IMG/VR virus record: IMGVR_UViG_2858635475_000003
Coordinates: 1,400-65,399 of that record
DNA length: 64,000 nt
Source of the DNA: a virus
Direction: 5' to 3' (one strand)
The number at the start of each line of letters is the position of its first letter. The first letter of the stretch is position 1. A model generated the notes under the pieces. That model saw only the letters and a list, made by a program, of their open reading frames with translations, made no database searches and was not told where the DNA came from. Positions 10,291-45,421 of the stretch are shown one piece after another. The translations under genes were made by a program, and so were the position numbers.

Positions 10291-12747
10291 ATGCTCCATG
10301 AAATTGAACCATTTGCGCGAGCAGGTTTTGCGATCCACTGGCTGCACCCGAAATCCAAGCGGCCGATCGGCAACGATTGGGCTTCGAAGCCAGTAAAGAC
10401 GCTGGACCAACTGCGCAGCAGCTACGAGGCCGGCGTATCCGGTAAAAACGTTGGCGTGAGACTCGGCAAGTGGTCGAAGGTCGGTTCCGATTTCCTGCTC
10501 GTCATCGATGTCGACATCCGCAAGCCGGAACTGGCGAAAGAAGCCTTTGCAGAACTAAAGCGCCTGTTTCCGGAATACGCGACGTATCCATCCGTGATCT
10601 CGGGATCGGGCGGCGCGAGCCGGCATTTCTACATCCTGACATCTCGTGAGTTCCCGTCGAAGCAGTTGGCTCACTCTGCACACCAATCCCTCGTTTGGGA
10701 TGAGAAGCAGCAGAAGGACGTGAAAAAGTGGGATTGGGAGATCGAGCTTTTCGGCACCGGCAAACAGGTTGCCATGCCGCCATCGATCCACCCGATCACC
10801 GGCAAACCCTATGTTTGGGAGCGCCCGTTCGACCTGGACGACCTCGATCTTGGCTTGGGTCCGTTCGTTGATTCGGATTACGTTGCCTCGCTAATCGACT
10901 ATGACGAGGAACGCGAGAACGCACCGGTCAATCCTGATGCCATTGAACCGCTCGGACTGACACCGGATCAGGTGCGCGAGATGTTGTCGAAGATCCCGAA
11001 TGAGGATTTCGACTACGAGGAATGGCTGAACGTCATGGCCTCTGTCCAGCATGAAGCGCAGGGACACCCTCTCTCGATCCGCAAGCAATTCTACGAGGTG
11101 TTTCGCGAGTGGTCAGCGAAATCATCCAAGCACGACGACGAGACGACCAAGGCCAAATACAAGAGCTTCAAGAACAGCCCGAACCGCAGGCAGCGCACGA
11201 TGCGCTCCATTCAGGCGCAGGTCCGCGAGATCGAGCTTGACGAGCAAATGGACGACCTCGGCGATGAGATTGATGATCTCGGGCCCGAGGAAGATGAGGA
11301 CGACGACGGCGAATTCGATGACGTGCTCGGCGGCGACCCCGACAAGCCGTCGAAACGAGAAATCAGACTGCGCAAGGCCGAGGTCGAGCACGCCTTCGGC
11401 ATTGTCCCGAAGCGCATCCAGCGCCTGAACGCAAAGCACGCCGTCACGTTTTTGAGCGGCAAGTGCGTGATTATCACCGAAAATTCTGACGGAACCACCT
11501 CTTACGGCACCCCCGGTGAGCTTCATAATTGGTACGAGAATGATCGCGTGGCGAGTGAGAAGGCCACGCAGCCTGTGTCAAAAGCCTGGATGCAGCATAA
11601 GGGGCGGCGCCAGTACCCGAACGGTGTCGTGTTCTCTCCTGGCAAGGAGCGGGACGGTTACTTCAACCACTGGAAAGGGTTCGATGTGGAGCCCGACCCC
11701 AAGGGTTCATGTCAAATGTGGCTGGACCACCTGCGCGAGATCATCTGTAACGGCAATGAAACGCACTACCGCTATGCGCTCGGCTGGTTCGCCCACATGA
11801 TCCAGAAGCCTTGGGAGAAACCAGGTGTCGCCATGGTGCTCCGCGGCAAAAAGCGGATCGGTAAGGATACGATCGCCGACTACTTCGCCGGCCTGATCAA
11901 GCGGTATCACGTCACGGTAGCAAATCAGGACCAGATGGTCGGCAAGTTCAATGCCCATCAGGAACGGTGCCTGCTTCTCCACGTGCAAGAAGGTTTTTGG
12001 GCCGGTAATAAGCAGGCCGAGGGTTCGCTGAAATACCTGATCACGTCCACCTCGGTGCTGATCGAGCCCAAGAGCGTCAACGCCTTTACGGTCGACAGTT
12101 ACCTGCGCCTTTTCATCTCGTCGAACGAAGATTGGGTGGTGCCAGCCACCGCGGACGAAGGCCGGTATTTTGTTCTCGACGTTTCCGACAAGCGAAAAGA
12201 CGACCACAAGTATTTCGGCGCGATGAAGCGCGAGATGATGAATGGCGGTCTGGAAGCCCTGCTCCACTACCTACAGAATTACGATCTCAGCAAGTTCGAG
12301 GTCCGCAAGGTGCCGGATACCAACGCGCTGGCCGATCAGAAAATCCAAGGCTTGAAGAACCTCGACAAATGGTGGTTCTCGATGCTCGAATCCGGCGAGC
12401 CCGAATTTGAATTCCAGAACATCAAGGGTATCGTTGCCGACTGGAATACGGAATCGATCGTTGTCGACCGAGACGATTTTCGCAATGTCTATTCAGCCTG
12501 GATGCGACACCAGCGTTATGACGGCAGTGAGCTTGTGAAATTCATGATCGGCAAGCGTCTGCGCGAACTGTGCCCGCAGATCGAGGACAGGCGGCGCCGG
12601 GACGGCGCGAAGCAGATTTGGACCTACGTGATTCCGAGCCTGCCGCAGTGCCGAGCGGAGTTCAGTAAATTCATGAATTCCGAGATCAAGTGGGAGACCA
12701 CTGATGTGCCTGAGATTATTCTGGAAGACGATTTCGACGATTTATAA
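10291..12747 (+). CDS. bifunctional primase-polymerase / D5-P4-type helicase
   Basis: PrimPol motifs (LLVIDVDIRKPE; SGSGGASRHFYIL). C-terminal P-loop NTPase (MVLRGKKRIGKDT). Ends EDDFDDL*. Confidence 0.8.
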   Translation: MLHEIEPFARAGFAIHWLHPKSKRPIGNDWASKPVKTLDQLRSSYEAGVSGKNVGVRLGKWSKVGSDFLLVIDVDIRKPELAKEAFAELKRLFPEYATYPSVISGSGGASRHFYILTSREFPSKQLAHSAHQSLVWDEKQQKDVKKWDWEIELFGTGKQVAMPPSIHPITGKPYVWERPFDLDDLDLGLGPFVDSDYVASLIDYDEERENAPVNPDAIEPLGLTPDQVREMLSKIPNEDFDYEEWLNVMASVQHEAQGHPLSIRKQFYEVFREWSAKSSKHDDETTKAKYKSFKNSPNRRQRTMRSIQAQVREIELDEQMDDLGDEIDDLGPEEDEDDDGEFDDVLGGDPDKPSKREIRLRKAEVEHAFGIVPKRIQRLNAKHAVTFLSGKCVIITENSDGTTSYGTPGELHNWYENDRVASEKATQPVSKAWMQHKGRRQYPNGVVFSPGKERDGYFNHWKGFDVEPDPKGSCQMWLDHLREIICNGNETHYRYALGWFAHMIQKPWEKPGVAMVLRGKKRIGKDTIADYFAGLIKRYHVTVANQDQMVGKFNAHQERCLLLHVQEGFWAGNKQAEGSLKYLITSTSVLIEPKSVNAFTVDSYLRLFISSNEDWVVPATADEGRYFVLDVSDKRKDDHKYFGAMKREMMNGGLEALLHYLQNYDLSKFEVRKVPDTNALADQKIQGLKNLDKWWFSMLESGEPEFEFQNIKGIVADWNTESIVVDRDDFRNVYSAWMRHQRYDGSELVKFMIGKRLRELCPQIEDRRRRDGAKQIWTYVIPSLPQCRAEFSKFMNSEIKWETTDVPEIILEDDFDDL

Positions 12748-12812
12748 TCAACTGTTTGTTGATTATGTAAACTGCTTGGGGTATGGTCATCGCAGTCACA
12801 AAGGAGATTGCG

Positions 12813-14219
12813 ATGACAGTTACTGGAAAAGATTTGATTGCGGCGGGCGCCGTGCCTGGAAAGTGGTTTCCGGAAGCTCTGCGTCTGATAAACGAAGAAG
12901 GTCTGACCATTCCGCAAGCGGTCGCGAGATGCGAACCCGCTCCTGCGTTGCCCCTGAGCCCCGCCCATTCGAAACCGATTTACGAAAACATCCGGTCCGA
13001 GAATGAGGCCGAAATGGCGAATGTTCTGGCCGTAAAACGCACTATGCAAGAAGTGATGCGCACGCCGGTCACGATCGCAGGCGCGATTATGCCAGATGCT
13101 TGCCCTGCCGGCCCGCTCGGAACGATTCCTGTCGGAGGCATCGTATCATCGACCGAAATCCATCCCGGTATGCATTCCGCCGACATCTGCTGCTCAATGG
13201 CAATCACTATCTTCGACGCCGCGGCGGATCCGAAAGAGCTTCTCGATGCTGTGAAAGAGGTTACCCACTTCGGACCAGGCGGTCGTCAGTTCGGCAACCA
13301 TGCGCTGAAAGCGGGAGAGTTTCGAGGCATCACTGACAGCGACAACCCCTTTCTTCAGGAGGCGAAAAAGTTGGCCTCGTCACATTTTGCCACACAAGGT
13401 GACGGAAACCATTTTGCCTATGTCGGGCGAATGAAGTCGGACGGTAAGGTTGCATTGGTGACCCACCACGGCTCTCGCGGTCCCGGCGCTATGCTCTACA
13501 AAGCAGGCATGCGGGTGGCCGAAAAGAACACTCGCGAAGTCTCACCTGAGACCCTGAAACAGAACGCCTGGATCAAGTCCGACAGCCGCGACGGCGAGCT
13601 TTATTGGGACGCCTTACAACATATCCGCAGGTGGACCAAAGCCAGCCATTTCCAAATCCATGACGATGCGGCGAAACTGTACCGTATGAACGTCAAGTCG
13701 GCCGGCTTCCGCACTCTGATGATCGAAGATCGATTTTGGAACGAGCACAACTTCGTTTTCAGGAAAAGCGATGGATTTTTCTATCACGCAAAGGGCGCGA
13801 CCCCTGCCTTCCTCAATTGGGCTGATGATGCCGGCGATCGAACCATCATTCCCTTGAACATGGGTGAGCCGATCTTGATTGTGCGCGGGCGCGATGCGCC
13901 CCATTCACTCGGGTTCTCGCCTCACGGCGCCGGCCGAAACTTCTCCCGCACTCAACACAAGCGTCTTATGGAGGGTCGCACCGACGAGGAAATCTTTGCC
14001 GAAGAAACCGCTCACATCGATGCACGCTTCTTCCTGGGCATCACCGATATTTCAGAGTTGCCGAGCGCATACAAAAACGCAGCGGCAGTGCGGGCGCAGA
14101 TCAACGAGTTCGGTCTGGCCGATATCGTTGATGAGGTGATCCCGTATGGCTGCATTATGGCCGGCGACTGGGAGCGGGATGCACCATGGAAGAAATCGCG
14201 GAAAGGCGGTGAAGCATGA
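12813..14219 (+). CDS. rtcB: RtcB-family RNA 3'-phosphate ligase
   Basis: RtcB signature blocks GDGNHF, HHGSRG and HGAGR. ATG at 12813 has an AAGGAG SD; an alternative upstream start at 12783 lies nearer the dyad motif. Confidence 0.85.
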   Translation: MTVTGKDLIAAGAVPGKWFPEALRLINEEGLTIPQAVARCEPAPALPLSPAHSKPIYENIRSENEAEMANVLAVKRTMQEVMRTPVTIAGAIMPDACPAGPLGTIPVGGIVSSTEIHPGMHSADICCSMAITIFDAAADPKELLDAVKEVTHFGPGGRQFGNHALKAGEFRGITDSDNPFLQEAKKLASSHFATQGDGNHFAYVGRMKSDGKVALVTHHGSRGPGAMLYKAGMRVAEKNTREVSPETLKQNAWIKSDSRDGELYWDALQHIRRWTKASHFQIHDDAAKLYRMNVKSAGFRTLMIEDRFWNEHNFVFRKSDGFFYHAKGATPAFLNWADDAGDRTIIPLNMGEPILIVRGRDAPHSLGFSPHGAGRNFSRTQHKRLMEGRTDEEIFAEETAHIDARFFLGITDISELPSAYKNAAAVRAQINEFGLADIVDEVIPYGCIMAGDWERDAPWKKSRKGGEA

Positions 14220-15859: not shown

Positions 15860-17002
15860 TTATTCGCCCGCTGGAACCGCAAGCTTGGCGCCGCCCATAT
15901 CCAGAGCAGGAAGTCCTTGATCCGTTTGCAACATCTTCGCCTTGGAGAGAGCAGTGACGCGGGGTCGAACGATTCTACGATATAGCCAATCTTCGGCTAT
16001 CCCGAAAAGGACACCTCCCGTGAGGCTGACCGTAATCATTATCGTAAATCGTTGAACCTCAGTGAGCGACGAGGTCATTTCTCCGACCAGAAAAATGATC
16101 GGGAAGTGGATTAGATATATCCCATACGACCAGCTACCCATCGAATTAATGTGTTTGGACACACGGTCGATCGGGTTCCTGATATTCGAAGCCGAATAGG
16201 TGATCCCAAGGCACGTGACAAGCAACAAGAATTGCCACAGAAACTGGTGCCGTTGTGCGAGTATGGTTACCACGCCCACCAAGGTCAGGAACACGCTCAG
16301 CGGGCCGTGCCTACCCTGTTTGGCAAGCGCCAGAAGCGCACCGCCGATGAAATACAAACCATAAGGGGACTGCCACACCATGGCCCCGAACAAACCATCA
16401 GGTGGCTCGGGAAAATTCGGGTACACGTAAAGAAGGGTTGCCGCCCACGCAACCATGAGCCAACCGTAAAACTGCCGCGGCATCAACATGATCAACGCGG
16501 TGATGAAGTAGAAATAGACCTCAAAATTCAACGTCCAGTACGGAACGCCGCTCCAACTGGCGTGTGATTTGCCCATCGGAAGCAAAAGAATGGAAGGGTC
16601 GAAAGAAATCTGTTCAGGTCGCACAGTCCCTCCCCCGACCATCATTGCGGTCCCGAGGACAAGAGCCACAAGATAACCGGGGTAAATGCGAGCAAGACGA
16701 AGGGTGATGAATGTGTTGACGCTAGAATGACGGGTCAGACACATAACGTAACCCGATATCACGAAGAAAATTAGCACTCCGACATTGCCAACATTCAGCG
16801 TCAGCCAATATTGATTGACAGGTTCCCACGGTCCATGTGGATTGGCCGGCGACGACCAGGCGAAAAGTGACGCGTGGAAGACAAGAACCAGGAGAGCGGT
16901 GCAAAATCTAAGACCTTGAATGCCGACGAGTTTACCGTCCCCCGCGCTCTTACCGTAATCCCCTATTGCCAAAGTCCCGCCTCCCGAGCCATTTATTAGC
17001 AT
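15860..17002 (-). CDS. acyltransferase family 3 membrane protein (candidate O-antigen/LPS acetyltransferase, lysogenic-conversion moron)
   Basis: Acyltransferase_3 N-terminal signature (GLRFCTALLVLVFHAS) and about 10 predicted TM helices. Oppositely oriented to the flanking phage genes. Confidence 0.75.
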   Translation of the reverse strand: MLINGSGGGTLAIGDYGKSAGDGKLVGIQGLRFCTALLVLVFHASLFAWSSPANPHGPWEPVNQYWLTLNVGNVGVLIFFVISGYVMCLTRHSSVNTFITLRLARIYPGYLVALVLGTAMMVGGGTVRPEQISFDPSILLLPMGKSHASWSGVPYWTLNFEVYFYFITALIMLMPRQFYGWLMVAWAATLLYVYPNFPEPPDGLFGAMVWQSPYGLYFIGGALLALAKQGRHGPLSVFLTLVGVVTILAQRHQFLWQFLLLVTCLGITYSASNIRNPIDRVSKHINSMGSWSYGIYLIHFPIIFLVGEMTSSLTEVQRFTIMITVSLTGGVLFGIAEDWLYRRIVRPRVTALSKAKMLQTDQGLPALDMGGAKLAVPAGE

Positions 17003-22375: not shown

Positions 22376-22555
22376 ATGACGAAAATTGAAAAGTGGGCTG
22401 CGCGTGTTTTTGATGACGCTAACCGCCTTCTAGCTGAAAAGATTTGTGTAGGTGAAGTGGTCGCACGAATTGAGGGAGATCGTCTGTTGAGACGGCAAAA
22501 TCCTAAGGCAAATGCGCGACTTTTCATTGCCCCAACAGGGGAATTTTTCGAATGA
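22376..22555 (+). CDS. hypothetical small protein
   Basis: GGGAG SD with an ATG at 22376. Confidence 0.35.
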   Translation: MTKIEKWAARVFDDANRLLAEKICVGEVVARIEGDRLLRRQNPKANARLFIAPTGEFFE

Positions 22556-23841
22556 CACACGCCATGCTCAACACAAAAACCGGAATCCCGCTCAATAAGG
22601 CAAACCGGCATGGCCTCATAACCGGCCAAACCGGAACCGGCAAAACCGTCTCACTGCAACGCCTCACTGAGCAATTCAGCAAGGCAGGCGTGCCAGTCTT
22701 TATCAGTGACGTGAAAGGCGACATTGCCGCTCTTTCGCGATCCTGCCCTACTCAGTTTCTTGACGTTTTCGGGCAAACCGGAAAGCCGCTCAAAGCGGCC
22801 ATTTCCGCCATGGGTGCGGACTTAATGGCGCGTGCCCTGGAATTGACGGATACACAATCCGGCGTGCTCGAAATAGCGTTTGCTTATGCCCGCGATAGCG
22901 GCGCACCGCTGGCCACGATTGCCGATCTGCGGCAATTGCTTTCTGCCATTTCTGAGGACTCGGATTATGTGAATCGGCAGTATGGCCAGATATCGAAAGC
23001 AAGCGTTGGCGTGATTATGCGCGCCCTGTTGCGCCTGGAAACACAAGGCGGCAACGCCTTTTTCGGCAATCCGCAATTCGACGTGGCGGCATTGCTGGAA
23101 ACGATAGAAGAAAAAGTGCAGTTGCCCAACTTCGCTAACGCATTTCACGGTCGTCCACGTTCGCCGGATATCACCTTAGTAACAGACCGACGCGGTCAAG
23201 TTTCCATCCTGCAGGCCGAACGCCTCATTAACTCGCCACGGGTTTACGCGGCCTTCCTGCTATGGCTTCTAACGGAGCTATGGGAACGCCTGCCGGAAAT
23301 AGGCGACATGGATAAGCCGCGACTCGTCATGTTCTTTGATGAGGCACACTTGCTTTTCAGTGAGATCAACCCTGCCCTGTTGCGGCGGATTGAGCAAACC
23401 GTGCGCCTCATCCGCTCCAAAGGCGTTGGCGTCTATTTCGTCACGCAATCCCCCGACGACGTGCCGCACGCCATTCGGGAACAACTGGCATTCCAGATTG
23501 TGCATGATCGTGCCTATCGTATCGGGCAAGCGCACGTTTCCGGTCTCACACAAGACGGCAGGCCGGTTAATCATGGCCTTGTTCAAATCGACTTGCCGGA
23601 ATGCCCGCTAGGCGCGTTGACGGACGACGAGAAACCCGCCGCGCCGGTCACAGTTGAACCCATGGCCGAAAAGCCGCAATGGGCGCGCATGGGCAAGCCA
23701 GAGATTGCGCTGTTACTTGTGATCCTGGTAGCAGGCGGGTTTGTGTCATATGGGCTTGTATGGGCATGGGCGGCCGGTACAATCGGCAAGCTTGCAGCAA
23801 TCGGTTTTGCCGTGGCAATCGCTGGTGTTTTGAGGGGGTGA
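22552..23841 (+). CDS. P-loop NTPase (HerA/FtsK/TraD- or Zot-like) with C-terminal double-TM anchor
   Basis: Walker A ITGQTGTGKT and Walker B LVMFFDEAH. C-terminal hydrophobic segments IALLLVILVAGGFVSYGLVWAWAAGTIGKLAAIGFAVAIAGVL. Confidence 0.65.
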   Translation: MTHAMLNTKTGIPLNKANRHGLITGQTGTGKTVSLQRLTEQFSKAGVPVFISDVKGDIAALSRSCPTQFLDVFGQTGKPLKAAISAMGADLMARALELTDTQSGVLEIAFAYARDSGAPLATIADLRQLLSAISEDSDYVNRQYGQISKASVGVIMRALLRLETQGGNAFFGNPQFDVAALLETIEEKVQLPNFANAFHGRPRSPDITLVTDRRGQVSILQAERLINSPRVYAAFLLWLLTELWERLPEIGDMDKPRLVMFFDEAHLLFSEINPALLRRIEQTVRLIRSKGVGVYFVTQSPDDVPHAIREQLAFQIVHDRAYRIGQAHVSGLTQDGRPVNHGLVQIDLPECPLGALTDDEKPAAPVTVEPMAEKPQWARMGKPEIALLLVILVAGGFVSYGLVWAWAAGTIGKLAAIGFAVAIAGVLRG

Positions 23842-28519: not shown

Positions 28520-29137
28520 ATGGGTACGCAGAACCGCATCAAATGGGATGATCGAAGTGTTGCCACGGCGAGCAGCCTGTGGGCCAGCGGCAAGTCCGTC
28601 ACCGATCTCGCGAGGCATTTCGATGTCAGCCGCAGCACCATCTCAGGCATGATCCTGCGCAACCGGGAAAAGTTCGAGAACCGGTCACGGGCTCCGGTTC
28701 AGCGAATTGAATGGAGCGAGCAGAGCATCGACAAGGCGGTTGCTCTCTGGAAGGAAGGCCGATCGGTCCGCGAGATTGCGGAAAACCTCAACGTTCCGAC
28801 CAGCCAGGCGAACGCCGTGATCTATCGCAACTATCGTGATCGGTTTCCGGTTAGATCGGGGAGCCGCAAACCGCCAAAGCCGGTCGGAGCGCCTGAGGTC
28901 GCCACGTCGTTCGTAAGCACCCAGGCGTCCGAGCGCTACGACTTCACGCAATACCAGATCGAGGGCACGGAACCGGTGCCATACTGGAAGCTCTCAGGCA
29001 GTCAGTGCCATTTTCCCCTCGAACGCTTTGAGGCTGTCAGCGGTCCCGAGACGCCGTGTTGCGGCCAGGGCAATCTCGAAGGGCGGTCCTACTGTAACAC
29101 CCACTGGAAGCTGATGCATGAGGTGAAGGTGCGATGA
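28520..29137 (+). CDS. GcrA-like cell-cycle regulator homologue with duplicated N-terminal DNA-binding domain
   Basis: Two GcrA-N-like repeats (W-DDRSV..LW.SGKSVTDLA..FDVSR.TI.G ; WSEQSI..ALWKEGRSVREIA..LNVP). C-terminal FCG/PYC-x-TH-like block (CCGQGNLEGRSYCNTHWKL). Confidence 0.7.
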   Translation: MGTQNRIKWDDRSVATASSLWASGKSVTDLARHFDVSRSTISGMILRNREKFENRSRAPVQRIEWSEQSIDKAVALWKEGRSVREIAENLNVPTSQANAVIYRNYRDRFPVRSGSRKPPKPVGAPEVATSFVSTQASERYDFTQYQIEGTEPVPYWKLSGSQCHFPLERFEAVSGPETPCCGQGNLEGRSYCNTHWKLMHEVKVR

Positions 29138-31431: not shown

Positions 31432-31461
31432 CCAACAAGTCACCTATTTGTGGATATCGAA

Positions 31462-31587
31462 ATGGCACTCAGGCTTATCGGCGCTTGTGTCGTCGTCACT
31501 CTGATCGCAATCGGCGCAACCTGGTTGCTCAACAATGTCCGCATCAAGCGGAATAACCGTCGCCCAAGGAGGGGCAAAACAGAATGA
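31462..31587 (+). CDS. 41-aa single-TM peptide coupled to the SPFH gene
   Basis: MALRLIGACVVVTLIAIGATWLLNN + basic tail. Preceded by the dyad motif; ATGA overlap with the next gene. Confidence 0.4.
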   Translation: MALRLIGACVVVTLIAIGATWLLNNVRIKRNNRRPRRGKTE

Positions 31588-32447
31588 ACCCTGCGTCTAT
31601 CGTCAAAACTGTTTTCTTTGGTCTGATAGCCATTGTCGCCGCTTCCGTCCTCGGCGGATCATTTTACACCGTCGATGAGGGCGAGCGCGCCGTTGTGGTC
31701 AGCCAAGGCAAGGTCTCCGGTGTATCGGCGCCTGGATTCCACTGGAAGGCTCCATTCATCACCGACGCGCATATCATCAGTGTTCGCACCCAGGCGATCG
31801 AGTTCAAGGACGAGCCGGTTTACACAGCAGACCGGCAGACTGCGACCGTAACGTTCTCGGTCAACTATGCGGCCACGCCCACAGATGCAGAGATCACCAC
31901 TCTATATCGTGAATTTCAGACTCTCGACGGCATCGAGACCCGCGCCCTGAAGCGTCAGGTTCGCGAGCAGATCAAAAACGTATTCGGCACATTCACGGCT
32001 GACACCGCTATCCGCGAGCGCGGCCGGCTGAATACTGAGGTTAGCGCGACCATTGCCACGCTCGGCGAACCTTTGATCAAGATTGAAGGCGTAAACATCG
32101 AGAATATCGACTTCTCCGACGCCGTCGAGCAGGCAGCCGAAGATCGCGCCAAAGCGGAAATGCTGGTGCAGACCGAAAAGCAGAAGCTTGCACGCGAAAA
32201 GGTGATCGCCGAGATCGCGGTCACACAGGCTCAAGCGCAGGCTGACAGCCAGGTCGCCACCGCCAAAGCAAATGCAGAAGCTGTACGATTGAACGGTGAA
32301 GCCGAGGCGGCCGCTATCAAGGCGAAATCTGACGCACTGGCATCGAGCCCCAACCTGGTCGAACTCACCAAAGCGGAAAAATGGAACGGCGCACTGCCCA
32401 CCACCATGGTTCCGGATGCCACCCTCCCCTTCATGCGCATGAACTGA
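31584..32447 (+). CDS. SPFH/band-7 (prohibitin/HflC-like) membrane protein
   Basis: N-terminal TM then an SPFH core (FYTVDEGERAVVVSQGKVSGVSAPGFHWKAPFI...), followed by an Ala/Glu/Gln-rich coiled coil. Confidence 0.75.
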   Translation: MNPASIVKTVFFGLIAIVAASVLGGSFYTVDEGERAVVVSQGKVSGVSAPGFHWKAPFITDAHIISVRTQAIEFKDEPVYTADRQTATVTFSVNYAATPTDAEITTLYREFQTLDGIETRALKRQVREQIKNVFGTFTADTAIRERGRLNTEVSATIATLGEPLIKIEGVNIENIDFSDAVEQAAEDRAKAEMLVQTEKQKLAREKVIAEIAVTQAQAQADSQVATAKANAEAVRLNGEAEAAAIKAKSDALASSPNLVELTKAEKWNGALPTTMVPDATLPFMRMN

Positions 32448-32515
32448 GTGACGGTTTCGGTCACCGGCAGGTCAGAGATGCCGGATTCCCAACCCGCCAC
32501 CAAGGAACCCTGACC

Positions 32516-33091
32516 ATGGATGAGCAACGAATTCAGATGATCATCGACAATAGCTTCAAGAACTTCCACGCGAAGGGGCTGGACTATATCTGCCTGAAAC
32601 GAACGCCGGAGCACACACGGAAGGCCTACTTCCTGAACGGTGATGTGACGAAGCTACCCGACGTGGTTAACCCGCACGATCATCGCTACCACTTCGATAC
32701 GACCGTTATTTGTGGGACGATGTCGAACTCGGAATACATCGAGAGTAGCTACGGCTCAGTTTACCAGCAGTTCGAGTGGCGCACCCCGCTCAACGGCGGC
32801 GACGGTTTCACCTGGAAACGAGAGACGAAACTTTTCGAGATCCAGCGCACCGGTTACCGTCCCGGCGAACAATACCGCATGAAGGCAGACGAATTTCACA
32901 CCATCCGTATGCACTCGGATCAGGTGATCATCATCCTCGATCAGTACGAAGACGTTGTGCCAGTCGACCAACCGACGCTCACCTTCATGCAATCGGACAA
33001 GGCTCCCGACCTCAACGGCCTGTATGAGCGCTTCACCGCGGACGACGTCTTAGATCGACTGACAGTTCTTCGGAATTTTGACGTCGAGTAA
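32516..33091 (+). CDS. hypothetical protein
   Basis: 191 aa ORF. Confidence 0.5.
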   Translation: MDEQRIQMIIDNSFKNFHAKGLDYICLKRTPEHTRKAYFLNGDVTKLPDVVNPHDHRYHFDTTVICGTMSNSEYIESSYGSVYQQFEWRTPLNGGDGFTWKRETKLFEIQRTGYRPGEQYRMKADEFHTIRMHSDQVIIILDQYEDVVPVDQPTLTFMQSDKAPDLNGLYERFTADDVLDRLTVLRNFDVE

Positions 33092-33122
33092 AAATCAACC
33101 ATTTGTAGAGAAAGCTCTGAAA

Positions 33123-33689
33123 ATGATCTCCAACATCCGAGAAATGCAGAAGCGCATCCATGCCCTGAACCACCGTTGGTGGCACGACGAGGCCGGCAAC
33201 CGGCTCGACCGTAACAAGGGTGAACTTATCTGCCTGTTTCATTCTGAGGTGTCCGAAGCAACCGAAGGTGCCCTCACCAACGCCATGGACGACAAGCTTC
33301 CGCATCGCCGGATGGACGAGGTGGAGATGGGTGACACCTACATCCGCGTTCTCGATTATGCGGAAGGTTTTGGGCACGACCTGGAATCGGCCGAGATTAC
33401 CGTATTTCCCGGCTGCCGCCGCTATTTCTACAATACCTCGGATGAAGGTAAGCTCGCGCAGCACGCCATCATCCACATGCATCTCAGCAAAGCAATGGAG
33501 TGCGAGCGGAAGGGAAATACTGCCAATGTCGCACGATGGCTCAATGGTGCACTTCATCTGATCGAGCAGTATTGCACACTTCACCGGTACGACTTGTTCG
33601 CCGCCATCGGCGAGAAGCTCGCCTATAACCAGCAGCGGCAAGACCACACCTACGAAGCCCGTGCGCAAGCCAACGGCAAGAAGTGGTGA
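33123..33689 (+). CDS. MazG-like nucleotide pyrophosphohydrolase
   Basis: EVEMGDTYIRVLDYAEGFGHDLESA resembles the MazG EExxE/D catalytic helix pair. Confidence 0.55.
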   Translation: MISNIREMQKRIHALNHRWWHDEAGNRLDRNKGELICLFHSEVSEATEGALTNAMDDKLPHRRMDEVEMGDTYIRVLDYAEGFGHDLESAEITVFPGCRRYFYNTSDEGKLAQHAIIHMHLSKAMECERKGNTANVARWLNGALHLIEQYCTLHRYDLFAAIGEKLAYNQQRQDHTYEARAQANGKKW

Positions 33690-33694
33690 TCGGT

Positions 33695-34027
33695 ATGGCG
33701 ATCCTCATATACCTCGTCGCCGCTCACTTCCTTTTTGACTACGCCCTGCAGGGCGACTGGATGAGCAGAGCGAAAAACCTGAAGCTCGATCTCGTGCTTG
33801 GCGAAACGATCTGGCCGCTGACATTGTTCGGGCACGCCCTCATTCACGCAACGGCTGTCCAACTCATCACCGGAAGCTGGATCTTGTTCACGGCCGAATT
33901 GGTCCTCCACACCTGGACTGATTACGAAAAGTGCCGCGGCAGTTTCGGATACAATACCGATCAGTTCATCCACATCGGCTGCAAAGTCGCATATGCTGCC
34001 GCACTGTTCTTTGAGGTGCTGGCATGA
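33695..34027 (+). CDS. hypothetical membrane protein
   Basis: Hydrophobic helices; ATG after the MazG stop. Confidence 0.4.
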   Translation: MAILIYLVAAHFLFDYALQGDWMSRAKNLKLDLVLGETIWPLTLFGHALIHATAVQLITGSWILFTAELVLHTWTDYEKCRGSFGYNTDQFIHIGCKVAYAAALFFEVLA

Positions 34028-34371
34028 ACATCGCCCTCGACTACGATTCCACCTACACGGCCGATCCGACCATGTGGGATGCATTCATCGAAATGGCGAC
34101 ACAGGTTTTTGGACATGACATCCGCATTGTGACCGCTCGTGATGACCGTCATGACCGAACCCCTGCTCTAATCGCTCTCGAAATGCGGCTGCCGGTCATC
34201 TACTGCCGTGGCGTTGCCAAGAGATGGTATCTGTCGCACCACGGCGAAGGGTTTGTCCCGCAGATTTGGATCGACGACAAGCCGGAGTCGATCTTGGAAA
34301 ACTCCACATTCGCTCCCGACAAGCTGGCGGAATGGCGTGCCAACCGCGTGGGCGAAGACGGCTGCGCGTAA
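34024..34371 (+). CDS. HAD-like phosphatase (candidate 5'-nucleotidase)
   Basis: N-terminal DxDxT (ALDYDST) HAD motif I. Confidence 0.45.
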   Translation: MNIALDYDSTYTADPTMWDAFIEMATQVFGHDIRIVTARDDRHDRTPALIALEMRLPVIYCRGVAKRWYLSHHGEGFVPQIWIDDKPESILENSTFAPDKLAEWRANRVGEDGCA

Positions 34372-34400
34372 AATCAACCATTTGTTGAAGGACAACCCTG

Positions 34401-35246
34401 ATGAATAACGTCGACAACCAGTACATCAGCACGCTGCGAAATCTCCTGGTCAACGGTATCTACCGAGAAGGCCGGAATGGTGGCACCTACGGTCTGTTCG
34501 GTCACCAGATGCGCTTCAATCTGGCCGAAGGATTTCCGCTGTTGACCACCAAGAAAGTTCACTTCCACTCGATCCTCGTTGAACTTTTATGGTTCCTGCG
34601 CGGCGACACGAACATCAAGTTCTTGCATGATCACGGCGTCACTATTTGGGATGAATGGGCTGACGAAAAAGGCGAACTCGGGCCGGTGTACGGGGCACAG
34701 TGGCGCAATTGGTACGGCGCGCATGTCATCGAAGGTACTAGCGATGACGGTGTGATCATTTCCCATAAGGACCAGATCACCGATCTCATCGACGGCATCA
34801 AGAATGACCCTCACGGTCGCCGGCATATCGTGACTGCATGGAATCCGGCCGAAATCGAAAACATGGCATTACCCCCATGCCACTGCCTGTTTCAGTTCCA
34901 TGTCGCCAAGGGTAAACTCTCTTGTCAACTTTATCAGAGATCCGCCGACTGGTTCTTGGGCGTACCCTTCAACATCGCCAGTTACGCACTGCTGACCCAT
35001 CTCGTGGCGCGAGAAACAGGGCTTGAGGTCGGTGACTTCATCCACACATTTGGCGATCTCCACCTCTACGCCAACCACGTAAATCAGGCATGGGAGCAGG
35101 TCGATAGAGAACCACGCCGGCTGCCAACCCTCAAGATCATGGACTTCGGCCAATCGATCCTGGTGAAGGACGACTATGGGGTTGATGACTTTGTGCTGGA
35201 AAACTACGACCCGCACCCTGTCATCCGGGCCGCAGTGTCGAAATGA
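34401..35246 (+). CDS. thyA: thymidylate synthase
   Basis: Full-length ThyA with conserved blocks ([34 protein letters not shown] active-site Cys, [16 protein letters not shown]). Confidence 0.9.
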
Positions 35247-35527
35247 CCTACGATCGCAACGCCACCCTGACCAATGCGCAGCCGGATGAACCATGGACGG
35301 CAGACCGGCTGCTCGACCTCATGGAGTCCATTCCACCGGTTTCGGACCCCCTCAATGGCGCCACCACGCTCTACGTGCATCCTTCTCGCGTCAGTGATGC
35401 AGATCGGATCAACGAGGCTGCCGGTGGTCGCCTCCACATTCAAACCAGCAAACTCGCATCGCCGAACGTCATTGCCGGATTCAAGGGCGACGACTGCGTG
35501 GTGATCATCAAAACGGAGAAGTCATGA
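35243..35527 (+). CDS. hypothetical protein
   Basis: Coupled ORF. Confidence 0.4.
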
Positions 35528-36075
35528 AGATTGTCTTTATCAATGGCAAGAAGCGAGCCGGCAAGGACACGTTCGTCGGATACCTGGAGTCTTCTGCTCG
35601 CTTCCACAAAATCCGTGTTCAGGCAGTTTCATCTATCGACCCTGTGCGCGAGGCGCTGGCCTCCATGGGTATCGACATCAACCAGAAGACACCTGAGTTG
35701 CGTGCCGCCATGTCGGAGATCGGAGATGTTCTGCAGAACAGGTTCCAGTTTCGATCGAAGTGGGTTTGCATGCGCGCCCTCGATGCGGACTTGGATTCCG
35801 CTCACATTTTCGTCGTCCATATGCGCGAACCCGAGATAATAGAGCAAACGATCGCTCTGCTGGCGCAATTCGATTTCCACGACGTGACGAAAATCTTCAT
35901 CGAATCTGATCGCGGTGACGTTGAGGAAAACAGTAACGCATCGGATCGGGATGTTTGGCGCGAGGGCTTCTATGACGAAGTCTATCCGAACAACGGCACC
36001 GTCCAGGAATTATCGCACAAGGCTGGCGCTTTTCTGAAAAAGCTGTTTCCGGGGCGCACTGGCGTCTTGCGCTAA
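35524..36075 (+). CDS. deoxynucleoside monophosphate kinase (T4 gp1-like)
   Basis: N-terminus [16 protein letters not shown] closely parallels T4 dNMP kinase MKLIFLSGVKRSGKDT. Confidence 0.65.
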   Translation: MKIVFINGKKRAGKDTFVGYLESSARFHKIRVQAVSSIDPVREALASMGIDINQKTPELRAAMSEIGDVLQNRFQFRSKWVCMRALDADLDSAHIFVVHMREPEIIEQTIALLAQFDFHDVTKIFIESDRGDVEENSNASDRDVWREGFYDEVYPNNGTVQELSHKAGAFLKKLFPGRTGVLR

Positions 36076-37956: not shown

Positions 37957-39555
37957 ATGACGACAATCACCCTGCACCCCGGCGATAACATTCTTTCAAT
38001 GAGAGGGATGGCGGAAAACAGCGTGCATAGCGTGGTGACAGACCCGCCGTATATGCTCACAAGCATCGTCAAGCGCTTTGGAAAAGAAGGTTCTGCGCCA
38101 GCCAAGACTTCTGGTAATGACGGTTCTTTTGCACGCCTTTCGGCTGGTTTCATGAACAAACAGTGGGACTCTCCAAGAGTGGAATTGCCGCCATTGAGTT
38201 CTGACTTCGGTCATTACATGGCAGGCTTGATTGACGGGGAAGGATGTTTTCATGTGCATCGGAAACTGGTAAACAACTGTGAGACCTACGACTGCCAATT
38301 TTCAATAACCCTCCGCTCTGATGACAAAGACATTCTCGTGGAGATGCAGCGCCAACTCGGCGGCATAGGCTCCTTGGCTCATCGGCCAGCGCGTGACAAC
38401 GCCAATAGCCAAGCGCGCTTCTGCATTAGCTCGAAAGCACATTGTCAGGTTCTACGGGCGGCTCTAAGCGTATTTCCATTGCGCGCAAAAAAGGCTCGTG
38501 ACTTTGAGATTTGGTGTCATGCACTTGATGCATGGGTCAATCACGAACCGAAATCCTCATGGGAAGACGTGTCTTTCTATCGTGACCAATTGATGATGGT
38601 GAAGCGTTTCGGAAGCCTCTATAAGCCCGAATTCCTTTTCCACTATCGTTGGGCCAAAGAAGCTTTCAGAGTTCTAAAACCAGGCGGCTGCATATTCGCC
38701 TTCTCCGGATCTCGCACTGGCCACTGGCAGGCAGCCGCCATGGAACTTGCAGGTTTTATCATGCATCCTATGCACGGTTGGTGTTTTGGATCTGGAATGC
38801 CGAAGCCTACCAATTTAAAAGGCGTTCCCGGTTACGAGGGGTGGGGTTATGGCACGCAAACACAGAAGCCTGCTCTGGAACCCATATACCTCGGTCAGAA
38901 GCCTTTCAGCGAAAAGACAGGTCCACTTAATGTTTTGAAGCACGGCGTGGGCGGTTTCAATCTTGAGGATTGTTCTGTCCCAAGTGCCAAGGGTGACCCC
39001 CGCCGACCCGCCAATCTGATCCTCGACGGCTCGCCGGAAGTGGTTGCGATGTTCCCTGACTCCAAAGGGCAGCAAGGCGCTGTGCGCGGCGATGAGCCTA
39101 GCGGTGTCACGAAGGATATCTACGGCAAGTTCAATGGCCGCGTTCCAGCGCCAGTCCGTGGTGACAGCGGTTCCGCAGCACGGTTCTTCCACCAGTTCGG
39201 ACCTGACGCCGACCCGCTGATCTATCACGGTAAAGCCGGCAAAACGGATCGCGCTGGCGGCAATCATCCCACGGTCAAGCCGATCGCCCTCATGAAGTAT
39301 CTCATCCGGCACATCACGCCACCTGGCGGCATTGTGCTCGACCCGTTCGCCGGCAGCGGCACCACAGGCGAAGCGGCGAAGCGTGAGGGCATGGACTGCA
39401 TTCTCATGGAAGCCGAGCCCGAATACATCGAATTTCTGGAAAAGCGGTTCGACATCGCAAAACCGGAGTTCGATTTCGACGACATCCTCGGCGAAGCTTT
39501 GCCGATCAAATCAACAAATAGTGGAGATACGTTTCATGACATTCTCGGTGCTTGA
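37957..39555 (+). CDS. beta-class (CcrM-type, DPPY) N6-adenine/N4-cytosine DNA methyltransferase with embedded LAGLIDADG domain and double DxxDILG tail
   Basis: Motif IV VVTDPPYML near the N-terminus and motif I LDPFAGSGTT near the C-terminus (beta order). Between them lies YMAGLIDGEGCF (LAGLIDADG). The C-terminus reads DFDDILGEALPIKSTNSGDTFHDILGA*. Confidence 0.8.
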   Translation: MTTITLHPGDNILSMRGMAENSVHSVVTDPPYMLTSIVKRFGKEGSAPAKTSGNDGSFARLSAGFMNKQWDSPRVELPPLSSDFGHYMAGLIDGEGCFHVHRKLVNNCETYDCQFSITLRSDDKDILVEMQRQLGGIGSLAHRPARDNANSQARFCISSKAHCQVLRAALSVFPLRAKKARDFEIWCHALDAWVNHEPKSSWEDVSFYRDQLMMVKRFGSLYKPEFLFHYRWAKEAFRVLKPGGCIFAFSGSRTGHWQAAAMELAGFIMHPMHGWCFGSGMPKPTNLKGVPGYEGWGYGTQTQKPALEPIYLGQKPFSEKTGPLNVLKHGVGGFNLEDCSVPSAKGDPRRPANLILDGSPEVVAMFPDSKGQQGAVRGDEPSGVTKDIYGKFNGRVPAPVRGDSGSAARFFHQFGPDADPLIYHGKAGKTDRAGGNHPTVKPIALMKYLIRHITPPGGIVLDPFAGSGTTGEAAKREGMDCILMEAEPEYIEFLEKRFDIAKPEFDFDDILGEALPIKSTNSGDTFHDILGA

Positions 39556-43280: not shown

Positions 43281-44201
43281 TTATGGGTAGGTGATGACCT
43301 GGCCGTAATCGGCGTCAGGCATGAAAGTGTTGATGATCTCGTCAAGGCGATCTTCCCAATACGGGAATTCTTCGAGGGTCATCTGACCTCGATCGATGAT
43401 TGCTCGTTCATCGTCAGTGAGCAGCGGGCCAGCCAAACGCTTGACGTACACGAAGTTGGTAAGAGCATTCAGCTTGCGAATATCCAGGTCGAACGAGAGT
43501 TCCTGCCAGCCGTCGCCTTTGAGATCGACTTGAGAGGCTGGCTTCAGACGGACATACGGAAAGAAGTAGCTGACCACCGGCCCGACCGGATTTTTGGAAA
43601 TGTAGCGGAGCGCACCAACAACTTCCTTGGCACTGTCCACGACATCCACAGTGGCGGACTGGCGCCACTGGAATGTGACCGAAAGGTCGTCACCATCAGC
43701 AATCGTCTCCGACTCGTCCATGACGTAGAACCGACCTTCAGTGCGATCCACGATCAGGTTGCTTTCGACATCAAAGGGATTACCGTTACGCAGAAAGGCA
43801 ATGTCTGGCTCAACGTGTCGGATACCAAACGGCTCAACCGTGGTGCCTAGTTGATACCAGCGACCCTTTTTGACTTTGATGACCTCGGTGATGTCGCCGA
43901 TCGCAATCTGTCCGGTTTTGTCCGGTTCTGAGCCGAACCAGAGTGCAATATTGTCCATCGACATGTTGTCGGTGGTTATGTCCGCGCTATGCACCTCGCG
44001 AGTGACCAGACTGTCGATTTGGATCTGCTGACCGCCGTATGACGTGAAGCGTTCAACTTCCTCAACCGTTCTCGATATAGTGAAACCGGGGGTGTTGCCG
44101 AGATAGAGTTCCCCTTCCCCCTTCAACGTGCCCGCAGCGAAACGATCGAAGTAAAGCTCACCTCGACCAATCACCAGCGTTGCATTCGACGTGGTTGTCA
44201 C
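43281..44201 (-). CDS. paralogue of the major tail (tube-like) protein
   Basis: N-terminus LVIGRGELYFDRFAAGTLKGEGELYLGNTPGF aligns with the 56101..56892 product (TLGRGELHFSRFKPGTQIGEGYRYLGNSPEF). C-terminal KGDGWQE block also shared. Confidence 0.55.
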   Translation of the reverse strand: MTTTSNATLVIGRGELYFDRFAAGTLKGEGELYLGNTPGFTISRTVEEVERFTSYGGQQIQIDSLVTREVHSADITTDNMSMDNIALWFGSEPDKTGQIAIGDITEVIKVKKGRWYQLGTTVEPFGIRHVEPDIAFLRNGNPFDVESNLIVDRTEGRFYVMDESETIADGDDLSVTFQWRQSATVDVVDSAKEVVGALRYISKNPVGPVVSYFFPYVRLKPASQVDLKGDGWQELSFDLDIRKLNALTNFVYVKRLAGPLLTDDERAIIDRGQMTLEEFPYWEDRLDEIINTFMPDADYGQVITYP

Positions 44202-45421
44202 AGGGCCCGACCCTCACGGTAAGCCTCGACATACTTGTGAACGGCTCGGCGGCCGAAATAGAAAACGCCTGCGCCGGCAGCGGCCATCAGGAGCCACGGC
44301 AAGAACGGCTGGATCGTTTCGAAGATTGTTCGGACCTGCGTGACACCGTTGGAGATGTCTTCGAGACTGGCAGTACCATCTGTCACGCCGCCGAACAGGG
44401 CGCCGCCGAAAATGGTCATACCGATCTTCTTGAGCCACGAGGCTTCCTTGACGACCGGTTCTGCCTTCAGGTCTTTTTCGGTGGCGTTCTGGCGCGCTGG
44501 CGCCATCTCGCGCTTGGGTGCCTTCACCAATTGCGCAAGAAGCTCATCGGTGATCTCACCGGTCAGCGGCAGATTATTGTCGGCTTGGAACGCCAAGATG
44601 GCGTTGCGCGTGCGCCGTTCGTACTTGTTGTCGGACTCACCAACTTCGGGGTATCCTTTGTCCCACAGAAGATCCTGAACGCGCTCGATCAATTTGGTGT
44701 CTTGCGCGACCGGCTTGGGTTCAGGGACCGGCACATTAACAGGAACGGCAACAGCGTTGTTGGTTTCCGGCGACCAGGGGGTATCCTTGATAGAGCGCCA
44801 CTTGTTATGGGCCGCTGCCATCTTGATGTGATACCGATTTTTCTTGTAACCAGGGCCATTGTAGACACTGACGATCTTTTCGCAGTCCGCTGCAGTCGTC
44901 TTGCGTTTCAATGCAGCGAGCTTGCGGAGTTCGCCATCAATTTTCGCTGAAACCAGAAAATCCACCATAGCCTCAAGGTGGACTGCCTCATCTTCCATGA
45001 AGGCTCGAACCATACCTTGGACGGTTGAGAAACCAACCATTTCGTGGTTCTCGCCGAGGATTTGCCCTAATCCCCAAGAGGTTGATTTTAGCGCCGCAGT
45101 TTCGTTGATCGCCATCGCCTTTTTCAGGCGCGGGTAACTGTCAGCCGGGTAAGGTTTCTCGCCCCATTTTGCATAAGCAAGCCCCTGCTTGACAGCATCA
45201 TCTCGCTGCTTTCCTGTCAGGTTTCTGTAGAATACGTGGGGCTCGAAAAGGATCTTGGGACGCTTTTGCGCGTCGAAACCCGAGCCGCTTGTCTCGACAT
45301 CCATAAATGCGTGAAGTTCGTCCTCACCAACCCTGATCTTGTGGGCGATGCGCGGAATATCGATATCGGTTATGCGCTTGGCTGCGCCTTTGAAGTTGTT
45401 CCAAGCGGACGAGGTGGCCAC
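44198..45421 (-). CDS. peptidoglycan hydrolase (DUF3380-type muramidase-like) with PG-binding domain and C-terminal TM
   Basis: N-terminal muramidase-like domain; PG_binding_1-like block (RNAILAFQADNNLPLTGEITDELLAQL); C-terminal hydrophobic helix. GTG start with an AGGAG SD. Confidence 0.6.
   Translation of the reverse strand: MATSSAWNNFKGAAKRITDIDIPRIAHKIRVGEDELHAFMDVETSGSGFDAQKRPKILFEPHVFYRNLTGKQRDDAVKQGLAYAKWGEKPYPADSYPRLKKAMAINETAALKSTSWGLGQILGENHEMVGFSTVQGMVRAFMEDEAVHLEAMVDFLVSAKIDGELRKLAALKRKTTAADCEKIVSVYNGPGYKKNRYHIKMAAAHNKWRSIKDTPWSPETNNAVAVPVNVPVPEPKPVAQDTKLIERVQDLLWDKGYPEVGESDNKYERRTRNAILAFQADNNLPLTGEITDELLAQLVKAPKREMAPARQNATEKDLKAEPVVKEASWLKKIGMTIFGGALFGGVTDGTASLEDISNGVTQVRTIFETIQPFLPWLLMAAAGAGVFYFGRRAVHKYVEAYREGRAL

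Follow-up and report, generated by a model that had tools for sequence, protein, structure and literature searches.

A 64,000-nucleotide stretch of viral DNA (IMG/VR record IMGVR_UViG_2858635475_000003, positions 1,400 to 65,399; here called the window) contains an SPFH/Band-7 gene that overlaps a short upstream gene encoding a 41-residue peptide with a single transmembrane (TM) helix. The peptide gene is real, conserved and linked to the SPFH gene, because its substitutions follow a coding pattern, open reading frames (ORFs) occupy the same position at many other SPFH loci and two glycines of the encoded helix are invariant. What the analysis shows comprises the structure and coupling of the two genes, the family and fold of the SPFH protein, the conservation of the pair and the action of purifying selection. 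The model favoured here, which is tentative and rated a little short of an even chance, is that the two genes form a portable phage module that specifies a periplasm-facing SPFH cage and an integral micro-subunit of that cage. Phages of the T4-like, Vi01-like, N4-like, jumbo and other types have been known to carry SPFH genes since at least 2006, and a 2026 paper still called the reason for their presence "unclear". The SPFH gene of the window is a further member of this known, uncharacterised phage family. The new element is its small partner, characterised by two glycines eleven positions apart (G-x10-G) and absent from the libraries and literature searched.

The gene pair and its products

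The coordinates of the two genes and of their parts are listed in Table 1. The peptide has the sequence MALRLIGACVVVTLIAIGATWLLNNVRIKRNNRRPRRGKTE. An alternative in-frame GTG start at 31450 would extend it to 45 amino acids (aa), but the homologues recovered by exhaustive search start at the Met. The Shine-Dalgarno sequence of the SPFH gene (AAGGAGG) is located inside the last codons of the peptide gene, 11 nt from the SPFH start codon, and the peptide stop codon shares bases with that start codon in an ATGA overlap. This is a classic arrangement for translational coupling. An earlier note on this DNA, made from the sequence alone, had described a phage-borne SPFH/band-7 gene translationally coupled to a 41-residue single-TM partner, and each part of that description is borne out. 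A scan for sigma-70 promoters and terminators, which is ill-suited to alphaproteobacterial phages, found none flanking the pair. Long antisense ORFs at 31902-32234 and 32231-32614 (both on the minus strand) arise from the Ala-rich helix of the SPFH protein. A megablast search of the region against GenBank phages gave no match, and relatives are recognisable at the protein level only.

The TM helix of the peptide covers approximately residues 5-23 and includes the invariant Gly7 and Gly18. It is followed by a basic tail, with eight Lys or Arg (K/R) residues among the last 18 positions. Compared with the prophage relative L022, the peptide ORF has five synonymous differences and one non-synonymous difference (ratio of non-synonymous to synonymous divergence, omega: 0.06). 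The counts for the other two frames are 0-1 synonymous and 4-5 non-synonymous. This substitution pattern is that of a protein-coding gene. Nucleotide conservation is also high: the peptide ORF and junction (31468-31647) are 92-97% identical to L022 9885-10064, which places them among the most conserved parts of a 2.7-kb comparison, and the five synonymous differences compare with approximately 15 expected (binomial p 1e-4). RNA structure was considered as a cause of this conservation and rejected (junction fold z = -0.59, none stable).

The G-x10-G spacing is invariant in 22 peptides gathered by the TM criterion alone. One face of the helix carries a conserved stripe consisting of Ile(-1), Gly(0), Val(+3), Ile(+8) and Gly(+11), with no insertions or deletions between the glycines, in a family whose members share just 13-45% identity. 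One subfamily has the additional juxtamembrane motif G..W.L..NV.IK. The K/R content of the C-terminal tail exceeds that of the N-terminal flank in 44 of 44 peptides (mean 4.7 vs. 0.4), so that the positive-inside rule implies an N-out/C-in orientation. The family is defined here as ORFs of 28-54 aa, with a gap of -11 to +7 nt to the SPFH start, one TM helix beginning no more than 10 residues from the N-terminus, two Gly residues 11 apart and a K/R-rich C-terminal tail. The window peptide fits this definition throughout, with G7, G18, the ATGA overlap and eight K/R residues in the tail.

The peptide has no match in Pfam, PHROGs, NCBIfam or PADLOC. An exhaustive phmmer search identified five true relatives of 35-41 aa (50-80% identity); two large repetitive proteins at the top of the list were discarded as spurious low-complexity matches. 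With respect to the lambda CIII family, the peptide, a TM helix with a basic tail, matches no Pfam family. With respect to holins, it has no PHROG or Pfam match and the lysin-like gene is more than 12 kb away, but holins are too diverse for profiles to exclude this class. In size the peptide resembles the small bacterial regulators AcrZ, MgtS and CydX, single-pass proteins of 30-50 aa with one TM helix and a charged tail that pack against a larger membrane complex. It shares with them its length, single helix and short charged tail, but there is no sequence relationship, and the window family is set apart by G-x10-G and by its fixed place upstream of an SPFH gene.

The SPFH protein has the conserved domain PF01145 (Band_7, residues 29-203; E-value: 2.3e-29, 103.1 bits against a gathering cut-off of 23.6) and belongs to the phage family phrog_200 (E-value: 6.2e-58, residues 5-286 on profile positions 79-359 of 379). 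As its N-terminus has no lipobox cysteine, the "lipoprotein" label of phrog_200 is inapplicable to the window protein. Among PDB profiles, it is most similar to prohibitin (9urz_B, E-value: 4e-22), followed by HflC (2e-20), HflK (1e-17), QmcA (1e-13) and stomatin (1e-11); in this ranking HflC is within two orders of magnitude of prohibitin. The earlier note had named HflK/C among known SPFH proteins. The window protein is an orthologue of neither, as the scores are far below the equivalog cut-offs for both HflK (49.2 bits vs. 159.4 for TIGR01933; 37 vs. 660 for NF008181) and HflC (47 vs. 134.4 for TIGR01932; 31 vs. 427 for NF008259). No second paralogous SPFH gene is found beside the first, and the neighbouring ORFs have no Pfam SPFH match.

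The AlphaFold (AF2) monomer model (predicted local distance difference test score, pLDDT: 84) consists of an N-terminal helix, the SPFH domain, a 76-residue helix, a short helix (residues 256-266) and a flexible tail. In Foldseek comparisons, the model has full-length matches to HflC (7vhq_G, E-value: 4e-16), erlin, PHB1/2 and HflK, as well as to the cage subunits of stomatin and QmcA. Its long helix superposes on the wall helices of the HflK/C, prohibitin and erlin structures solved by cryo-electron microscopy (cryo-EM). The architecture of a cage subunit is thus present in the model: anchor, SPFH domain, long wall helix and C-terminal closing segment. The C-terminal segment, which includes a low-confidence part of the monomer model, probably closes the cage or drives oligomerisation.

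Table 1. Coordinates of the gene pair, its parts and the small genes found upstream of it at other loci
Feature	Sequence	Coordinates	Strand	Remarks
Mini-TM peptide gene	Window	31462..31587	+	ATG 31462 to TGA 31585-31587, 41 aa
SPFH/Band-7 gene	Window	31584..32447	+	ATG 31584 to TGA 32445-32447, 287 aa, prohibitin/HflC-like
ATGA overlap	Window	31584..31587	+	SPFH start 31584-31586 shares bases with peptide stop 31585-31587
Shine-Dalgarno AAGGAGG of SPFH gene	Window	31566..31572	+	Within peptide codons P-R-R-G; read from sequence
SPFH membrane-anchor helix, residues 3-23	Window	31590..31652	+	AF2 helix H3-23
SPFH alpha/beta domain, residues 26-177	Window	31659..32114	+	AF2 pLDDT ~90; Pfam match 29-203
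Long Ala-rich helix, residues 179-254	Window	32118..32345	+	AF2 H179-254; aligns with cage wall helices
C-terminal segment, motif P256...W267-x-G269-x-L271-P272...P277...P282-F	Window	32349..32444	+	Invariant columns in two alignments; also kept in N4 gp20
Second micro-ORF	L002	3726-3869
Second micro-ORF	L005	2746-2877
Second micro-ORF	L009	2726-2869
Second micro-ORF	L010	2750-2881
Second micro-ORF	L012	2736-2876
Second micro-ORF	L030			108 nt upstream of SPFH start
Upstream predicted lipoprotein gene	L001	3580-3846
Upstream predicted lipoprotein gene	L003	3705-3953
Upstream predicted lipoprotein gene	L011	2577-2843
Upstream predicted lipoprotein gene	L007	2578-2841

The SPFH genes of the window and L022 differ at 105 of 864 nucleotides, and their products differ at one of 287 residues. 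The resulting omega is 0.004 (synonymous divergence, dS: 0.79; non-synonymous divergence, dN: 0.003), compared with 0.06-0.16 for the flanking genes. With this omega at this dS, the gene is under very strong purifying selection and is not a decaying passenger.

The location of the SPFH body can be predicted from relatives. Coliphage N4 gp20 is a full-length homologue (E-value: 1e-20) in which the TM anchor is replaced by a lipoprotein signal (lipobox LTSC). Lipoproteins are exported, and this signal therefore provides the strongest indication to date that SPFH bodies in the clade are periplasmic, as in HflK/C. The bodies of the nearest sequence relatives, HflC, HflK and prohibitin, face either the periplasm or the intermembrane space.

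Distribution and relatives of the pair

Homologous loci were surveyed using heuristic rules for ORFs, start codons and hydrophobicity, and were sampled via conserved-peptide patterns and not exhaustively. A small TM ORF abuts the SPFH gene at 40 of 80 non-redundant viral loci, and 36 of these ORFs have G-x10-G. The ORF persists beside SPFH proteins with identities down to approximately 38%. In a second scan, of IMG/VR, an abutting TM ORF of 25-55 aa with G-x10-G was found at 23 of 67 evaluable SPFH genes and at one of 377 control genes from the same loci (Fisher p about 7e-20), a pairing far beyond chance. The sole control match is an SPFH gene that was missed by the exclusion rule, making the control count effectively 0/376. 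Of the 43 non-redundant loci that carry the peptide, 41 have the SPFH start codon at a distance of -11 to +7 nt from the peptide stop codon.

Equivalent ORFs of 28-54 codons are present in Rhizobium phages RHEph10 (annotated as gp166) and RHph_X66, the Agrobacterium N4-like phage OLIVR1 and the T7-like phage Pasto, and an unannotated one is present in the 131-kb Mesorhizobium phage Cp1R7A-A1. They are also found in many IMG/VR contigs, in prophage-like loci of Bartonella, Brucella/Ochrobactrum, Paenochrobactrum and Aureimonas, and in a few loci of Pseudomonas and Dokdonella. The genomes that carry the cassette thus include a lambda-like prophage (the window), RHEph10-like siphophages of approximately 115 kb, OLIVR1, Pasto and Cp1R7A-A1. 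As these are unrelated phage types, the cassette must move between genomes as a unit. In a neighbour-joining tree of 158 SPFH proteins, peptide-carrying loci are concentrated in the phage-associated half, with scattered absences. The SPFH clade itself matches 118 of 50,697 GenBank phage records, whose organism names have at least 28 different first words (essentially host genera); N4 gp20, jumbo phages and Pasto are among the matches. The earlier note had called SPFH pairs uncommon in tailed phages; SPFH genes are indeed rare per genome, but they recur among these phages.

The position of the cassette suggests early or middle expression. In Pasto, it is located between the integrase and the RNA polymerase gene, upstream of the latter, and in OLIVR1 it is near the RNA polymerase genes, as are gp19 and gp20 in N4. 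In RHEph10 and the window, it is found among genes of nucleotide metabolism.

Several additional small genes accompany the cassette. In several phages, a second micro-ORF family is found just upstream of the mini-TM gene, forming a three-gene cassette (Table 1). These ORFs encode 38-47 aa with a start motif similar to MRPEDINTIN..G.AFNGN and a C-terminal TM helix; the window has none. In RHEph10-like phages, a predicted lipoprotein of 82-88 aa (lipobox LLSSC or LLGGC) is encoded directly upstream of the cassette, and in RHph_N1_10 a lipoprotein of this type occupies the place of the absent mini-TM gene. Two annotations also deserve comment. In OLIVR1 (NC_055840.1, 15592-16803; locus L190), the SPFH frame is on the strand opposite to two coding sequences annotated as "band 7-like protein", and the GenBank annotation therefore seems to be on the wrong strand. 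In Pectobacterium jumbo phage CBB, the SPFH homologue (10865-11692) is annotated as "structural protein", which suggests that it was detected in virion preparations. Finally, in the Pseudomonas corrugata/brassicacearum group, a chromosomal SPFH homologue divergently adjoins a Bax1-I (YccA-family) gene (L054 2960-3667, minus strand, and 16 other loci). E. coli YccA is an FtsH/HflKC-associated protein. As a link to FtsH this adjacency was given no weight, because it is confined to one Pseudomonas subgroup.

Four known systems are useful for comparison. The window protein shares with E. coli HflK/HflC, the partners of FtsH, an N-terminal anchor, SPFH domain, long wall helix, C-terminal closing segment and (as predicted here) a periplasmic body. 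It differs in being encoded by one SPFH gene and not two paralogues and in lacking the long cytoplasmic N-terminus of HflK, and the second gene of the pair encodes a 41-aa TM peptide. With the PHB1/PHB2 cages it shares its top PDB profile match, its length (approximately 270-290 aa) and its domain order, and NCBI names its relatives "prohibitin family protein". Prohibitins, however, are eukaryotic or mitochondrial hetero-oligomers that are not known to have a micro-protein partner, and identity is only approximately 20%.

The SPFH-NfeD operons (QmcA-YbbJ, YqiK-YqiJ and FloA/FloT-NfeD) likewise combine an SPFH gene with a gene for a membrane-protein partner. The NfeD-type partner is thought to help SPFH assembly, and the QmcA-YbbJ complex has been solved as a 1:1 assembly of 26 heterodimers. 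A partner of this type, as raised in the earlier note, is not what the window encodes: the peptide has no NfeD match in Pfam, lacks the NfeD/OB-fold and is too short for one, and the flanking ORFs have no such Pfam match either. QmcA is also a weaker match than HflC or prohibitin, and it faces the cytoplasm, whereas the window protein is predicted to be periplasmic.

The closest phage counterpart is the gp19-gp20 pair of coliphage N4. Like the window protein, gp20 belongs to phrog_200 and has the C-terminal motif KWNG.LPTTM.P, but it is lipoprotein-anchored and not TM-anchored. Gp19, too, is a membrane protein of small size whose C-terminal tail is basic, and its gene overlaps that of gp20 by 8 nt; it differs from the window peptide in its length (68 aa), its two hydrophobic segments and the absence of G-x10-G spacing. 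The N4 pair is thus analogous to that of the window, without homology between the two small proteins. In the literature searched, no phage SPFH protein, and neither gp19 nor gp20 of N4, was the subject of a functional study.

The Agrobacterium prophage and its other genes

The window is part of an integrated, lambda-like temperate prophage of Agrobacterium. It encodes typical tailed-phage proteins (DNA polymerase, helicase, primase, RtcB, tape-measure, major head, S49-type protease and portal), and a complete 2.97-Mb chromosome (CP169641.1) has a gene for an identical portal protein. In this chromosome, the region beyond the right end of the window contains genes for gpW, a GpA terminase, DUF1441, AlpA and a tyrosine integrase, before ordinary bacterial genes resume; the integrase gene is approximately 4-5.5 kb past the window end. 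A prophage relative with collinear genes is found integrated in an Agrobacterium contig of 1.57 Mb; its nucleotide identity is 83-88%. Integration and the temperate lifestyle are concluded from the chromosomal portal match, the downstream integrase and this integrated relative. The NCBI entry for the 41-aa peptide is a hypothetical protein of Agrobacterium radiobacter (CAM3841705.1).

The pair is found within a long co-directional block of replication and nucleotide-metabolism genes. Genes of this block at 33078-36075 encode a MazG-like pyrophosphatase, ThyA and a deoxynucleoside monophosphate kinase, all related to deoxynucleoside triphosphate (dNTP) metabolism. Such neighbours recur in unrelated phages: a dUTPase gene is beside the SPFH gene in RHEph10, Kc166B and Skarpretter, and ThyA or ThyX is encoded near it in RHEph10 and Alteromonas phage AD45-P4. 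This adjacency could reflect either a functional relationship or just a shared early/middle module. The thymidylate synthase of the window (34401-35246) is of the ThyA type, as judged by its sequence, and is similar in size to the annotated thymidylate synthase of RHEph10. In L022, the matching place (12710-13630) in this 83%-identical prophage relative is occupied by a gene with a weak match to Thy1 (ThyX), which looks like a non-orthologous replacement between close relatives.

Several other genes of the window are of interest. An O-acetyltransferase gene similar to O-antigen acetylases (15860-17002, minus strand; phrog_3333, E-value: 9e-36) is on the strand opposite to its neighbours and looks like a lysogenic-conversion moron. 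A DNA methyltransferase gene (37957-39555, plus strand; phrog_67) encodes 532 aa, of which residues 86-191 are similar to HNH endonucleases (phrog_5046). The L022 counterpart has 450 aa and is 82 residues shorter, and so the HNH-like segment may be an inserted domain. The gene at 28520-29137 (plus strand) is a homologue of an L022 gene with a precomputed Pfam match to the cell-cycle regulator GcrA. The window also encodes a HerA-like ATPase (22552-23841, plus strand) and an RtcB RNA ligase (12783-14219, plus strand). Its only lysin-like gene is located at 44198-45421, more than 12 kb from the pair.

Proposed model and alternatives

The proposed model for the two proteins is as follows. The SPFH protein would be anchored in the inner membrane by its single N-terminal helix, with its body in the periplasm, and would most likely assemble into a closed homo-oligomeric ring or cage that fences a small patch of the membrane. 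A cage is proposed because all solved full-length SPFH relatives form cages, which in this class are closed assemblies of 16-44 subunits, and the window protein has every part of a cage subunit. ATGA coupling would lead to the production of peptide and SPFH protein in roughly equal amounts. The conserved face of the peptide (Gly, Val, Ile and Gly at positions 0, 3, 8 and 11) would most likely pack among the SPFH anchor helices in the opposite orientation, and the basic tails would form a positive collar on the cytoplasmic side of the cage. The peptide could then be regarded as a minimal counterpart of a second subunit, such as HflK beside HflC, or of the NfeD partner of QmcA. The module would be expressed with early or middle genes, where the programme can be read from gene order, and the cage would corral or shield a host inner-membrane machine to the benefit of the phage. 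As both the HflK/C and prohibitin families partner FtsH-type proteases, homology makes FtsH the best single guess for this client, although even this guess is at most a modest one, with chances well below even.

Several points weigh against this model. The peptide is absent from approximately half of the viral loci, including that of the close relative RHph_N1_10 (67% SPFH identity), and from approximately 65 chromosomal homologues of Pseudomonas, Shewanella and Buttiauxella, a clade with longer cytoplasmic N-termini. The SPFH protein is therefore able to survive alone. A search for covariation of the peptide with the anchor helix was negative, the small-residue anchor positions being the same with and without the peptide; together with the absences, this is the main objection to an obligate partnership. 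The structural model is of a monomer, and its C-terminal 17 residues are of low confidence. Both topologies are derived from the positive-inside rule and homology, and expression timing from gene position; like these, the oligomeric cage, the contact between peptide and SPFH protein and the client are inferred. The transfer of FtsH as client is weak because the window protein is not an orthologue of HflK or HflC.

The alternatives differ mainly in the role that they assign to the pair. Since the element is temperate, a role in lysogeny is at least possible. In the most specific form of this idea, the pair would control the choice between lysis and lysogeny by manipulating host FtsH, with stabilisation of a CII-like regulator as one conceivable route. 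The lambda-like prophage with its tyrosine integrase, the FtsH-family partners of the nearest solved relatives (HflC, HflK and prohibitin) and the predicted HflK/C-like topology agree with this. The scores far below the HflK/HflC equivalog cut-offs and the single SPFH gene do not, and neither does the location of the pair in a nucleotide-metabolism/replication block and not beside recognisable immunity genes; no CII- or CIII-like protein was identified. In addition, N4-like OLIVR1 also has the cassette, and there are analogous pairs in coliphage N4 as well as in jumbo, T4-like and Vi01-like phages, none of them known to be temperate. The presence of the cassette beside RNA polymerase genes in N4-like and T7-like phages makes a lysogeny-specific role less likely, and this explanation is considered improbable.

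Superinfection exclusion or prophage defence, with a periplasmic cage and peptide that block DNA entry or membrane steps of competitors, is also unlikely, though somewhat less so. The N4 gene directly upstream of gp19-gp20 is annotated as "superinfection exclusion", the SPFH gene of Vi01-like phage PhiSH19 adjoins a "superinfection exclusion protein" gene, and the prophage also has the O-antigen acetyltransferase-like conversion gene described above. The exclusion proteins T4 Imm, T4 Sp and T5 Llp are likewise small, early-expressed envelope proteins. However, such annotations of neighbours, putative in themselves, are guilt by association. A search for known defence systems was also negative: no PADLOC-DB 2.0 model matched the SPFH protein, the peptide or four neighbouring ORFs at E <= 0.01. 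Furthermore, no promoter or terminator specific to the pair could be recognised, and the two genes run in the direction of the replication and nucleotide-metabolism genes, unlike a typical moron expressed in lysogens.

A third role, in membrane integrity or lysis timing, would involve a cage that steadies the energised inner membrane against premature holin firing or membrane-attacking abortive infection. SPFH cages are general organisers of membrane microdomains, the SPFH protein YdjI of Bacillus brings PspA, a phage-shock protein, to membranes, and rIIA/rIIB ("protector from prophage-induced early lysis") are encoded a few genes away from the cassette in RHEph10 and from gp19-gp20 in N4. In the window, the pair is distant from the only lysin-like gene, and no holin, spanin or rII homologue was found beside it in Pfam or PHROG searches. 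As no experimental link was found in the literature search either, this role has a low probability. Exclusion and membrane integrity are nonetheless live alternatives, and their support comes from the annotations of neighbouring genes.

Other explanations question the partnership itself. The mini-ORF might be a translated leader that tunes SPFH expression, or an independent membrane protein that travels with the SPFH gene. The Shine-Dalgarno sequence within its last codons, the low number of synonymous differences from L022 in one of the most nucleotide-conserved regions, the many SPFH homologues without the peptide and the absence of TM covariation are all compatible with this. A pure leader, however, would not keep invariant glycines, a helix face and a juxtamembrane motif at 13-45% identity, the junction forms no stable RNA structure and the substitutions are protein-coding; the mini-ORF is thus quite improbable as a leader or mere traveller. 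The earlier note had also allowed that the pair could be a host-derived passenger with no role for the phage. Homologues with 45-50% identity are indeed chromosomal in Pseudomonas, Shewanella, Buttiauxella and others, and NCBI names the nearest proteins as Agrobacterium proteins, but the latter are encoded inside prophages and the chromosomal homologues lack the peptide. The passenger explanation is contradicted by the omega of 0.004 at a dS of 0.79, by the retention of both genes together in unrelated phage lineages and by the membership of the SPFH protein in a phage family, and is barely credible.

The two-gene module of cage and micro-subunit is therefore preferred, tentatively, to these explanations. 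A more far-reaching version, which is rather unlikely, is that the module is a phage "membrane corral": a periplasmic cage with an anchor ring lined by the G-x10-G micro-protein that imprisons a host machine early in infection. Its clients might include FtsH, a DNA-entry channel or a pore-forming effector of abortive infection, and it would represent a new class of takeover or counter-defence device that is swapped among phages as a cassette.

The SPFH cages of HflK/C, prohibitin, stomatin, erlin and flotillin have recently been solved by cryo-EM, and the contents of most are unclear. In one large phage-associated SPFH clade, the SPFH gene is accompanied by that of a tightly coupled and strongly conserved micro-protein, which annotation pipelines often miss or label as hypothetical. 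The pair provides a testable handle on these cages: two small genes, an invariant pair of glycines that can be mutated and, as convenient model phages, coliphage N4 (gp19-gp20) and the Agrobacterium phage OLIVR1. As an integral cage subunit, the peptide would be smaller than any SPFH partner known so far and would reveal how phages customise the membrane microdomains of their hosts. Should FtsH or a defence effector prove to be the client, the cassette would represent a new mechanism of host takeover.

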